Positions 1-5,334 of a DNA stretch of 10,116 nucleotides are shown in pieces (position 1 is the stretch's first letter; every line of letters begins with the position of its first letter). This stretch comes from Escherichia coli (GTDB taxonomy: Bacteria; Pseudomonadota; Gammaproteobacteria; Enterobacterales; Enterobacteriaceae), in the NCBI RefSeq assembly GCF_003334305.1, contig NZ_QOWS01000043.1; one strand, given 5' to 3'. The notes beneath the pieces are model-generated. The model had not been told where the DNA came from, made no database searches, and saw nothing but the letters and a program-made list of their open reading frames with translations. Position numbers and translations under genes: made by a program.

Positions 1-76
1 GAGCGGTAGTTCAGTCGGTTAGAATACCTGCCTGTCACGCAGGGGGTCGCGGGTTCGAGTCCCGTCCGTTCCGCCA
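1..76 (+). tRNA. aspT: tRNA-Asp (anticodon GTC), truncated by 1 nt at the window edge (5' G missing)
   Basis: Sequence gagcggtagttcagtcggttagaatacctgcctgtcacgcagggggtcgcgggttcgagtcccgtccgttccgcca matches the E. coli tRNA-Asp sequence as I recall it, minus the first G. GTC anticodon at about 34-36 in the loop ctgtcac, T-arm ggttcgagtcc, encoded 3' CCA. The gene name is assigned by context (followed by tRNA-Trp and hdfR, as at the distal end of rrnC). Confidence 0.9.
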
Positions 77-84
77 CCCTAATT

Positions 85-160
85 AGGGGCGTAGTTCAAT
101 TGGTAGAGCACCGGTCTCCAAAACCGGGTGTTGGGAGTTCGAGTCTCTCCGCCCCTGCCA
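85..160 (+). tRNA. trpT: tRNA-Trp (anticodon CCA)
   Basis: 76-nt sequence aggggcgtagttcaattggtagagcaccggtctccaaaaccgggtgttgggagttcgagtctctccgcccctgcca matches E. coli tRNA-Trp as recalled. Anticodon CCA at 118-120, T-arm gttcgagtc, encoded CCA end. An 8-nt spacer (77-84) separates it from tRNA-Asp. Confidence 0.9.
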
Positions 161-255: not shown

Positions 256-1095
256 TTAATACACTTCATCCAGCACGTTAATTTTCAAAAGATCGCGAAT
301 CAACGTATTTTTATCGCTATTTTGCAGCCATATGGCATAAAGCGGCCGTGAAAGTGTTGTGCTATCGACAACGGTATGCAGGCCGCCTTTTTTACGCGCC
401 CAGCTGACGGGTAGCCAGGTGCAACCATTAAGCATCGCAATCTGTTGCTGTGCCAGTTCAGCAGAACTGGTTGTCAGAATGGGCACTTCGTCAGCACCGA
501 TCAAACCTGCCTCATGCTGTTGAAAATCTGGCCCCCACTCAAGTCGCAGATAATTAAGATCTCCCTTTAGTTTTGAAGGGGCACTGGTATAAAGCGCTAA
601 AGTGAAATATCCCAGCAACTGACTACTAAATTCGTCCATTTTGGGCGCTTCAGTGGTAATAAGAAGATCAAGCTGGCGTTCATGCAGCTGTTTTACCAGA
701 GACTGCCGTTGGGCAATTCGCGCTTCGAACTGTAAGCCTGTATGGGCATCCTGATTTTGATACAAACGTCCCAGCCACTGATTAAGCATACATTCCCACA
801 ATGAGGCGCTGGCACCGATAGAAAACTCGTTATGTCGTGAGGTATGCGCCACCTCCTTGCGGGCGGCCTGCCAGGTGCTCATGAGCGTTTCTGCATAAGG
901 CAGTAGTTTTTCACCGGCAGCGGTTAAACGGATATTGTTTCTGTGGCGGGTGAAAAGGTTCACACCCAGTTGATTTTCCAGTTGTCTGATTCGAAAGCTC
1001 ACTGCTGACTGGGTCAGATAGAGCGATTCAGCCGCTCGACCAAAGTGACGCGTTCGGCTAACTTCCAGGAAAGTTTTTAACAATTCCGTATCCAC
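256..1095 (-). CDS. hdfR: LysR-family transcriptional regulator HdfR (279 aa), GTG start
   Basis: 279-aa ORF with an N-terminal LysR-type helix-turn-helix ([16 protein letters not shown]) and a C-terminal substrate-binding-like domain. The sequence matches HdfR/YifA as recalled. The first codon is GTG (plus-strand cac at 1093-1095), preceded on the coding strand by GGAGAG, an appropriately spaced Shine-Dalgarno. Position between the tRNAs and maoP/comM matches known synteny. Confidence 0.85.
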
Positions 1096-1213: not shown

Positions 1214-1552
1214 ATGGCGGAAAGCTTTACGACGACTAATCGATATTTCGACAATAAACATTATCCACGTGGATTCTCTCGTCATGGTGATTTCACCATC
1301 AAAGAGGCACAACTGCTTGAGCGTCATGGTTATGCCTTCAATGAGTTGGATCTTGGCAAACGCGAGCCGGTTACCGAGGAAGAGAAACTCTTCGTAGCAG
1401 TATGCCGTGGCGAACGTGAGCCAGTGACAGAAGCAGAACGCGTGTGGTCCAAGTATATGACGCGTATTAAGCGTCCAAAACGTTTTCACACCCTTTCCGG
1501 CGGTAAACCGCAGGTTGAAGGTGCTGAAGACTACACCGATTCTGATGATTAA
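1214..1552 (+). CDS. maoP: MaoP / YifE (DUF413 family, macrodomain Ori protein), 112 aa
   Basis: 112-aa ORF with ATG start at 1214 and an AGGAG Shine-Dalgarno at 1201-1205 (8-nt spacer). Sequence [42 protein letters not shown] matches YifE as recalled. Divergent from hdfR, convergent with comM. Confidence 0.85.
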
Positions 1553-3097: not shown

Positions 3098-3304
3098 AAG
3101 CCCTCCTTGAGTCACTATTATGTGCATAAGATATCGCTGCTGTAGCCCGCTAATTCGTGAATTTTAGTGGCTGATTCCTGTTTATTTGTGCAAGTGAAGT
3201 TGAGTTGTTCTGGCGGTGGAATGATGCTCGCAAAAATGCAGCGGACAAAGGATGAACTACGAGGAAGGGAACAACATTCATACTGAAATTGAATTTTTTT
3301 CACT

Positions 3305-3380
3305 CACTATTTTCTTTTTAAAAAACAACAATTTCTATTGAAATTATTAAACGCATCATAAAAATCGGCCAAAAAATATC
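3305..3380 (+). promoter_or_regulatory. AT-rich upstream activating region of the ilv operon promoter (UP-element / IHF-binding region expected here)
   Basis: About 80% A+T stretch with several A5-6 tracts (3320-3325, 3360-3364, 3371-3376) immediately upstream of the candidate core promoter. Published work on ilvGMEDA describes an upstream AT-rich activating region with an IHF site and a non-productive upstream promoter. Exact site boundaries cannot be fixed from sequence alone. Confidence 0.4.
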
Positions 3381-3421
3381 TTGTGCTATTCGCAAAATCT
3401 ATGGTAACTCTTTAGGCATTC
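3381..3421 (+). promoter_or_regulatory. Candidate core promoter and transcription start region for ilvLXGMEDA
   Basis: Candidate -35 TTGTGC (3381-3386) and candidate -10 hexamers in 3400-3410 (tatggt / taactc). A start near 3420 would give a leader of about 180 nt ending at the attenuator T-run (3596-3603), consistent with the recalled leader length. The hexamer assignment is uncertain. Confidence 0.35.
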
Positions 3422-3449
3422 CTTCGAACAAGATGCAAGAAAAGACAAA

Positions 3450-3548
3450 ATGACAGCCCTTCTACGAGTGATTAGCCTGGTCGTGATTAGCGTGGTGGTG
3501 ATTATTATCCCACCGTGCGGGGCTGCACTTGGACGAGGAAAGGCTTAG
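3450..3548 (+). CDS. ilvL: ilv operon leader peptide (32 aa): MTALLRVISLVVISVVVIIIPPCGAALGRGKA
   Basis: ATG at 3450 through TAG at 3546-3548. 15 of 32 codons encode Leu (4), Val (6) or Ile (5), the hallmark of the branched-chain amino acid attenuation leader. An intrinsic terminator lies immediately downstream. Confidence 0.9.
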   Translation: MTALLRVISLVVISVVVIIIPPCGAALGRGKA

Positions 3549-3569
3549 AGATCAAGCCTTAACGAACTA

Positions 3570-3603
3570 AGACCCCCGCACCGAAAGGTCCGGGGGTTTT
3601 TTT
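3570..3603 (+). terminator. ilv attenuator (Rho-independent terminator of the leader transcript)
   Basis: GC-rich stem acccccg (3571-3577) / cgggggt (3590-3596) followed by 8 consecutive T (3596-3603), 22 nt after the ilvL stop codon. Confidence 0.85.
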
Positions 3604-3634
3604 TGACCTTAAAAACATAACCGAGGAGCAGACA

Positions 3635-3685
3635 ATGAATAACAGCACAAAATTCTGTTTCTCAAGATTCAGGACGGGGAACTAA
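3635..3685 (+). CDS. ilvX: Small ORF ilvX (16 aa: [16 protein letters not shown]) between the attenuator and ilvG
   Basis: ATG at 3635-3637 preceded by GAGGAG (3624-3629), stop TAA at 3683-3685, two nt before the ilvG ATG. It matches the position and sequence of the described E. coli small protein IlvX as I recall it. Translation cannot be judged from sequence alone. Confidence 0.55.
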
Positions 3686-3687
3686 CT

Positions 3688-5334
3688 ATGAATGGCGCAC
3701 AGTGGGTGGTACATGCGTTGCGGGCACAGGGTGTGAACACCGTTTTCGGTTATCCGGGTGGCGCAATTATGCCGGTTTACGATGCATTGTATGACGGCGG
3801 CGTGGAGCACTTGCTGTGCCGACATGAGCAGGGTGCGGCAATGGCGGCTATCGGTTATGCCCGTGCTACCGGCAAAACTGGCGTATGTATCGCCACGTCT
3901 GGTCCGGGCGCAACCAACCTGATAACCGGGCTTGCGGACGCACTGTTAGATTCTATCCCTGTTGTTGCCATCACCGGTCAAGTGTCCGCACCGTTTATCG
4001 GCACGGACGCATTTCAGGAAGTGGATGTCCTGGGATTGTCGTTAGCCTGTACCAAGCACAGCTTTCTGGTGCAGTCGCTGGAAGAGTTGCCGCGCATTAT
4101 GGCTGAAGCATTCGACGTTGCCAGCTCAGGTCGTCCTGGTCCGGTTCTGGTCGATATCCCAAAAGATATCCAGCTAGCCAGCGGTGACCTGGAACCGTGG
4201 TTCACCACCGTTGAAAACGAAGTGACTTTCCCACATGCCGAAGTTGAGCAAGCGCGCCAGATGCTGGCAAAAGCGCAAAAACCGATGCTGTACGTTGGTG
4301 GTGGCGTGGGTATGGCGCAGGCAGTTCCTGCTTTACGAGAATTTCTCGCTACCACAAAAATGCCTGCCACCTGCACGCTGAAAGGGCTGGGCGCAGTTGA
4401 AGCAGATTATCCGTACTATCTGGGCATGCTGGGAATGCATGGCACCAAAGCGGCGAACTTCGCGGTGCAGGAGTGCGACTTGCTGATCGCCGTGGGTGCA
4501 CGTTTTGATGACCGGGTGACCGGCAAACTGAACACCTTCGCACCACACGCCAGTGTTATCCATATGGATATCGACCCGGCAGAAATGAACAAGCTGCGTC
4601 AGGCACATGTGGCATTACAAGGTGATTTAAATGCTCTGTTACCAGCATTACAGCAGCCGTTAAATATCAATGACTGGCAGCTACACTGCGCGCAGCTGCG
4701 TGATGAACATGCCTGGCGTTACGACCATCCCGGTGACGCTATCTACGCGCCATTGTTGTTAAAACAACTGTCGGATCGTAAACCTGCGGATTGCGTCGTG
4801 ACCACAGATGTGGGGCAGCACCAGATGTGGGCCGCGCAGCACATCGCACACACTCGCCCGGAAAATTTCATTACCTCCAGCGGCTTAGGCACCATGGGTT
4901 TCGGTTTACCAGCGGCGGTTGGCGCACAAGTCGCACGACCGAACGATACTGTCGTCTGTATCTCCGGTGACGGCTCTTTCATGATGAATGTGCAAGAGCT
5001 GGGCACCGTAAAACGCAAGCAGTTACCGTTGAAAATCGTCTTACTCGATAACCAACGGTTAGGGATGGTTCGACAATGGCAGCAACTGTTTTTTCAGGAA
5101 CGATACAGCGAAACCACCCTTACTGATAACCCCGATTTCCTCATGTTAGCCAGCGCCTTCGGCATCCCTGGCCAACACATCACCCGTAAAGACCAGGTTG
5201 AAGCGGCACTCGACACCATGCTGAACAGTGATGGGCCATACCTGCTTCATGTCTCAATCGACGAACTTGAGAACGTCTGGCCGCTGGTGCCGCCTGGCGC
5301 CAGTAATTCAGAAATGTTGGAGAAATTATCATGA
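3688..5334 (+). CDS. ilvG: Acetolactate synthase II (AHAS II) large catalytic subunit, intact 548 aa
   Basis: Uninterrupted 548-aa ORF starting [25 protein letters not shown] with a thiamine-diphosphate binding motif ([14 protein letters not shown]...LDN). GGGGA Shine-Dalgarno-like sequence 8 nt upstream. Followed by ilvM with a 4-nt overlap. Confidence 0.95.

Follow-up and report, generated by a model that had tools for sequence, protein, structure and literature searches.

The window (the whole 10,116-bp stretch of DNA analyzed) lies on the Escherichia coli chromosome and carries hdfR, maoP and comM, followed by ilvL-ilvX-ilvGMEDA (Table 1). The tRNA genes at its left edge would fit the distal end of an rRNA operon located before hdfR. 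A 601-base segment around the ilvL upstream region (3100-3700) was matched in all 5426 complete E. coli genomes, with ilvL, ilvX and ilvG annotated under the match, and is 100% identical to strain 503025. An earlier note on this DNA had likened the stretch ahead of ilvL to a published upstream activating region of ilvGMEDA, and the comparison bears this out: it is orthologous to the K-12 MG1655 ilvL upstream region at 98.8% identity, with window position x corresponding to x + 3946872 in NC_000913.3. The two strains differ in ilvG, which is intact in the window but carries the annotation of a frameshifted pseudogene in K-12.

The AT-rich stretch upstream of ilvL is the already known and well-studied ilvPG promoter with its upstream activating sequence, UAS1; locus, architecture, AT-rich UAS, IHF-region block, leader and attenuator are the same in K-12 and in the window, and the two alleles resemble each other qualitatively in their predicted destabilization. 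Positions 3270-3418 are very probably the regulatory region of this sigma-70 promoter, which serves the ilvLXGMEDA operon and would be activated by IHF and stress-induced duplex destabilization (SIDD) through UAS1. Here we report the identity, anatomy and conservation of the locus, together with its predicted destabilization profile and the shift of that profile on clamping.

Table 1. Features of the window, with positions counted from its first base
Feature	Position	Strand	Remarks
Two tRNA genes	1-157		One cut by window edge
hdfR	256-1095	-	From ORF size, published gene order and the maoS site in the hdfR-maoP spacer
maoP	1214-1552		From ORF size, published gene order and the maoS site in the hdfR-maoP spacer
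comM/yifB	Annotated start 3097	-	
AT-rich upstream activating region; dominant predicted SIDD site	3270-3383		p_open 1.0 at sigma -0.05
Palindrome TGAATTTTTTTCA (TGAA-N5-TTCA)	3290-3302	.	-128 to -116; candidate LTTR/MetR-type box
Putative approximate IHF footprint (UAS1)	3306-3341	+	T-rich 5′ element plus core AAACAACAATTTC at 3323-3335
K-12 TATATT, here TCTATT	3334-3339	+	Likely -10 of cryptic upstream promoter ilvPG1 (alignment)
A5 tract	3360-3364	+	-58 to -54; distal UP-subsite position; moderately conserved in 41 Enterobacteriaceae loci
A6 tract	3371-3376	+	-47 to -42; proximal UP-subsite-like; strongly conserved in profile
-35 hexamer TTGTGC	3381-3386	+	K-12: TTGTAC; comparative placement
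Extended -10	3402-3410	+	TG 3402-3403, G, TAACTC 3405-3410 (TGgTAACTC)
Putative transcription start (A)	3418	+	About 2 nt uncertainty; 7 nt past the -10 hexamer
5′ UTR of ilvL leader mRNA	3418-3449	+	Near-invariant, CA-rich; contains mini-ORF MQEKTK*
ilvL leader peptide gene	3450-3548	+	Product MTALLRVISLVVISVVVIIIPPCGAALGRGKA; annotated
Attenuator terminator hairpin and T8 run	3573-3604	+	T8 at 3597-3604; within Rfam match RF02744
ilvX	3635-3685		After the attenuator
ilvG	3688-5334		Intact 548-codon ORF; followed by ilvM, ilvE, ilvD, ilvA

Core promoter, transcription start and leader of ilvL

The core promoter was placed by comparison across Enterobacterales. A degenerate pattern for the leader-peptide core VVVIIIPPCG recovered 120 ilvL loci from Enterobacterales genomes, and the 114 loci with at least 260 bp of upstream sequence were used for the placement. 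The block TGnTA[AC]CTC, near-invariant in the profile, was present in 111 of these, and TTGnnn (most commonly TTGTCA) lies 17-18 bp upstream of the -10 in all 111; the corresponding spacer in the window is 18 bp. From this comparison we infer that transcription starts at A3418, in agreement with the start near 3420 that the earlier note had estimated, which would give a 32-nt 5′ UTR and a leader of 183-187 nt up to the T-run at 3597-3604.

The earlier note had also described the core hexamers as not clean, a remark with which the failure of a consensus promoter scan on the true promoter agrees. That scan misses the real promoter and calls TTGAAA-16-AAAAAT (3338-3365, plus strand) and TTGGCC-18-AATAAT (3372->3343, minus strand), both of which are present in the window and K-12 alleles and occur at chance frequency. 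TATGGT (3400-3405) was weighed as an alternative -10 and discarded, since it is 13 bp away from the conserved TTG and reads TGTGAT in other genera, with TGnTAACTC invariant.

The last 30 bases of the interval covered by the earlier note (3418-3449) are 5′ UTR rather than promoter DNA. The mini-ORF that begins there (3433-3453) ends in a TGA stop that overlaps the ilvL ATG (ATGA), and in Citrobacter and Enterobacter a one-base difference places its ATG in frame, giving an extended leader peptide (MQENTKMTALL...). Rfam family RF02744 (Rev39 5′ UTR), described from soft-rot Enterobacteriaceae (Rfam), matches 3379-3668 with 157 bits and is evidently the ilvL leader/attenuator under another name. 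The ilvL 5′ UTR is also a verified target of GcvB, which represses ilvL via its R1 seed (PMC9299463).

IHF, UAS1 and predicted destabilization

IHF bound in UAS1, 90 bp ahead of the transcription start, increases ilvGMEDA expression from ilvPG (PMC10783518), and this activation occurs only in negatively supercoiled domains (PMC10783518; also PMC1468432 and PMC545778). The IHF site is exactly the most easily destabilized location and unpairs without IHF; once IHF is bound, destabilization shifts to the -10 (PMC10783518; PMC1468432; PMC545778). Of the UP/IHF-type activation that the earlier note had proposed, activation by IHF stands, as published for K-12. The published IHF mechanism is a supercoiling-dependent transfer of destabilization from the UAS to the -10 ("DNA structural transmission", Hatfield and Benham), which is neither bend-and-contact nor UP-type. 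ilvPG with UAS1 is a textbook case of activation by DNA mechanics rather than by protein-protein contact. The leuV (tRNA-Leu) promoter follows the same principle, with a protein clamping an upstream SIDD site so that the -10 opens (PMC1468432), but leuV is another operon and uses Fis, whereas ilvPG uses IHF.

Both IHF binding and supercoiling-dependent activation are taken here from the literature on the K-12 allele and would extend to the window. Under negative supercoiling, the very AT-rich upstream activating sequence would open first; IHF, binding inside it (core 3323-3335), would keep this DNA as bent B-form, and the superhelical stress would then be relieved at the next weakest place, running downstream into the -10. 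The core promoter (TTGTGC, 18-bp spacer, TGgTAACTC) would be weak and would require assistance to melt, and relief of stress at the -10 would speed open-complex formation. The A-tracts at -58 to -42 would add intrinsic curvature.

We infer that the IHF target is centered near 3326, about 40 bp upstream of the phased A-tracts at 3360-3376. An IHF-like core, AAACAA-N4-TTT, lies at 3323-3335 beside an A/T-rich 5′ element (3309-3325), in a block whose center (about 3326) is roughly 92 bp upstream of the putative start; Parekh and Hatfield (1996) reportedly gave the distance of IHF from the start as 92 bp. Across the family, AAAACAA stands at -96 in 40-41 Enterobacteriaceae loci, with the profile consensus TTTTtt.TATA.AAAACAA.g.ttTTta. 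When 3128-3449 was scanned for the strict IHF pattern WATCAANNNNTTR, nothing matched with at most one mismatch; the core at 3323-3335 matches with two mismatches in the window allele and with one in the K-12 allele. Two-mismatch matches occur at chance frequency across the window (76 found versus 72 expected), so the IHF assignment is carried by position, conservation and the literature rather than by the pattern. A further two-mismatch IHF-like sequence, GATCAAGCCTTAA, lies at 3550-3562, right after the ilvL stop, and belongs to the same chance-frequency class; work of the 1980s reportedly described another IHF site within the ilv leader.

Destabilization was computed with our own exact dynamic-programming version of the Benham model, using AT/GC copolymer energetics at low salt and parameters following the WebSIDD papers. 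At sigma -0.05 and without a clamp, the region 3270-3383 was the sole site with p_open above 0.05 in the 10,116-bp window, so that in silico, too, the UAS is the location most easily destabilized under negative superhelicity. Bound IHF was mimicked by forcing 3306-3341 closed, with p_open read out at 3402-3412. With either allele, window or K-12, this clamp raised -10 opening in domains of 10, 5 and 3 kb; the sole exception was sigma -0.06 in the 10-kb domain, where the window allele showed no rise. The effect reached at least 1000-fold in 3-5 kb domains: in the 3-kb context at sigma -0.055, p_open at the -10 went from 7e-6 to 0.011 for the window allele and from 6e-6 to 0.11 for K-12. For the window allele in the 10-kb context, the corresponding values were 0.0014 unclamped and 0.013 clamped at sigma -0.05, and 0.06 and 0.10 at sigma -0.055; little is transferred to the -10 there because most of the released stress goes to a distant site at 1104-1170. 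In the model, the published transfer mechanism is thus reproduced qualitatively for the window allele. The distant site, in the hdfR-maoP spacer, is the second most destabilized in the window and adjoins a perfect match to the 17-bp maoS macrodomain site (1163-1179; PMC5023128).

The predicted destabilization appears to extend well beyond E. coli. Among 26 Enterobacterales species analyzed in 7-kb contexts, the region equivalent to 3285-3390 was the dominant SIDD site in most, including members of Escherichia, Salmonella, Citrobacter, Raoultella, Lelliottia, Kosakonia, Pantoea, Yersinia, Providencia and Xenorhabdus; it was not dominant in Serratia grimesii, Pectobacterium and Edwardsiella in the same analysis. 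Conservation of a SIDD site is only weakly specific, because AT-rich promoter spacers are commonly SIDD sites. That destabilization and promoter architecture are both kept across Enterobacteriaceae supports the mechanism beyond K-12.

Phased A-tracts, curvature and other readings of the spacer

The earlier note had called 3305-3380 strikingly AT-rich, and at 77.6% A+T it clearly exceeds both the window (47.1%) and the whole comM-ilvL spacer (64%); the AT-richest 76 bp of the entire 10,116 bp are 3276-3351 (82.9%). Two A-tracts that it had singled out as about 11 bp apart, 3360-3364 and 3371-3376, have exactly those coordinates, with starts 11 bp apart. They belong to a cluster (T7 3294-3300, T5 3315-3319, A6 3320-3325, A5 3360-3364 and A6 3371-3376) that packs five of the 38 A5+/T5+ tracts in the window into 83 bp (3294-3376). 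AA-dinucleotide periodicity in 3280-3420 peaks at 10.5-11 bp, a value reached by 2 of 1000 (0.002) mononucleotide shuffles, although this control is lenient because shuffling breaks up runs.

Curvature was predicted with our own small-angle wedge model under two parameter sets (Bolshoy/Trifonov wedge angles and AA-wedge). The intrinsic bending that the earlier note had read from the phasing is recovered as a predicted bend peak at 3356-3371, in about the top 1% of the window (98.8-99.9th percentile with Bolshoy/Trifonov angles, 99.87-99.99th with AA-wedge). Helically phased A-tracts and predicted curvature above background are thus both present, which would qualify this stretch as curved DNA. 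In 64 loci, predicted curvature upstream of the promoter has a median at the 99.4-99.7th percentile, with a maximum whose position varies, and 91 of 111 Enterobacterales loci carry an A4+ tract no more than 14 bp ahead of the -35.

The UP element has a proximal subsite with consensus AAAAAARNR (reportedly from Estrem et al.) at about -46 to -38 and a distal subsite with consensus AWWWWWTTTTT at about -57 to -47. Judged by these consensus sequences, AAAAATATC (3372-3380) agrees with the proximal subsite at 6 of 8 specified positions, and AAAATCGGCCA (3361-3371), with its GC-rich 3′ half, does not agree with the distal one; the full UP consensus is missed because -53 to -48 is the GC-rich TCGGCC. 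The comparison with rrnB P1-type UP elements runs the same way: the ilvPG A-tract at about -47 to -42 is likewise directly upstream of the -35, with AT-rich DNA to -60, but unlike theirs the distal subsite is broken by TCGGCC. Since the A-tracts at -58 to -42 occupy UP-subsite positions, the UP part of the earlier reading is plausible, and they probably provide a UP-like contact for the RNA polymerase alpha subunit beside IHF/SIDD. We know of no alpha-CTD test at the ilvPG promoter. A stronger version, in which the tracts form a UP element plus bend that recruits alpha-CTDs independently of IHF and supplies the main upstream activation, leaving IHF/SIDD secondary, is a real possibility if not the one we expect. 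The proximal fit, the position of the bend peak and the occurrence of the A4+ tract in genera without the AAAACAA/IHF-like block all argue for it; the GC-rich distal position does not, and the literature credits supercoil-dependent activation to IHF at UAS1 (PMC10783518). Because both mechanisms can coexist, this UP reading is more a co-mechanism than a rival.

At the other extreme, the phasing could have arisen by chance from the AT-rich composition of the spacer and serve no function. The phased tracts number only two and the periodicity control is lenient, but the tracts, above all the proximal one, are kept across genera while neighboring bases vary, and curvature is conserved in the 64 loci, which makes chance phasing highly improbable. 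A further alternative looks to the other side of the spacer: the AT-rich curved DNA may be chiefly a platform for H-NS or other nucleoid proteins and/or the divergent comM (yifB) promoter, with only an incidental link to ilv. Shimada et al. (2014) found an RpoD-holoenzyme SELEX peak and a promoter-like TTGGCC-18-AATAAT in the yifB<>ilvL spacer and flagged this spacer for H-NS (PMC3946193), and our scan recovered the same minus-strand site, pointing toward comM. However, over 240 bp separate that site from the annotated start of comM, the spacing of the conserved blocks in 3290-3410 is fixed relative to the ilv -10 and variable relative to comM, and published deletion and replacement experiments link UAS1 to ilvPG (PMC10783518). 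A candidate comM site does exist nearer to that gene: TGGAATGATGCTCGCA at 3217-3232, conserved in Escherichia, Salmonella and Citrobacter, resembles a CRP-S (Sxy-dependent CRP) site, of which one half, on the comM strand, is a good TGCGA. This would fit comM as a member of the competence regulon. On balance we regard an H-NS or comM role as the chief function of this DNA as improbable, and retain the reading of 3270-3418 as the ilvPG regulatory region.

Promoter alleles and a conserved palindrome

Two leads are worth noting at this well-studied promoter: a derived promoter allele in K-12, and a conserved palindrome at 3290-3302 without an assigned regulator. The window and K-12 differ at seven positions in the 601 bp, and six of these cluster in 3314-3398 (3314, 3335, 3385, 3391-3392 and 3398). 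The IHF core ends in TTC in the window versus TTA in K-12, and the promoter spacer has CG at 3391-3392 versus TA. In the SIDD model, -10 opening after clamping is 4-20 times lower in the window allele than in K-12, and allele swaps attribute the whole of this difference to four substitutions in the core promoter (3385, 3391-3392 and 3398). Escherichia albertii, Salmonella and Citrobacter have TTGTG at the -35, as in the window, and mostly G/C at 3391-3392. Since these outgroups carry the window's states, the experimentally studied K-12 core haplotype (TTGTAC...TTTACA) is, as judged from sequence comparison, derived and the window allele ancestral-type; the latter is predicted to have weaker transfer to the -10. 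The K-12 haplotype has two more AT pairs in the -35/spacer and is predicted to melt 4-20 times more readily. Published activation factors may therefore fail for most natural E. coli.

Of 5422 genomes compared with the window over the 105-bp segment 3308-3412, 533 reach 99% identity or more, 2803 fall at 95-99% and 2086 at 90-95%, a band that includes K-12 (94.3%, six mismatches). Among K-12 and six sampled haplotypes, 13 sites are polymorphic in 3314-3415, versus one in the leader (3420-3612). One of the substitutions would also touch a second promoter: the cryptic ilvPG1, which we take to lie about 72 bp upstream of PG2, likely has K-12 TATATT at 3334-3339 as its -10. The window reads TCTATT and thus lacks the -11 A of this putative hexamer, and the outgroups have TCTATT-like sequence there, as in the window. 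For the existence of ilvPG1 we rely on the title of a paper by Pagel et al. (1992) in the references of PMC10783518.

The second lead is an exact TGAA-N5-TTCA match that is unique in the window. It starts at -128/-129 in 45 Enterobacteriaceae loci, with invariant half-sites and a variable spacer, and its distance to the ilv -10 is 115-116 bp in 39 of 42 loci, versus 11-203 bp to the comM start; the palindrome thus keeps a fixed phase with the ilv -10 in some 40 species of Enterobacteriaceae. With this variable distance to comM and fixed distance to the ilv -10, it was rejected as part of a comM promoter. Half-site spacing, compared with the consensus sequences, also led us to reject CRP (7 bp between TGA and TCA, where CRP requires 6), ArgR (5 bp between TGAA and TTCA, where the ARG box has 6) and FNR.

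To our knowledge, no regulator has been assigned to the palindrome at ilvGMEDA. Its sequence fits the T-N11-A box, and candidate regulators may include a LysR-type protein such as MetR, or the neighboring HdfR. That the palindrome is the operator of a regulator so far undescribed for ilvGMEDA and, separately, that natural promoter haplotypes tune IHF/SIDD activation is a tentative suggestion that we rate as rather unlikely. A MetR link, if true, would tie homocysteine/methionine status to branched-chain amino acid synthesis. The MetR consensus is TGAA-N5-TTCA (PMC3353975), and the same pattern occurs in the K-12 metR-metE spacer.
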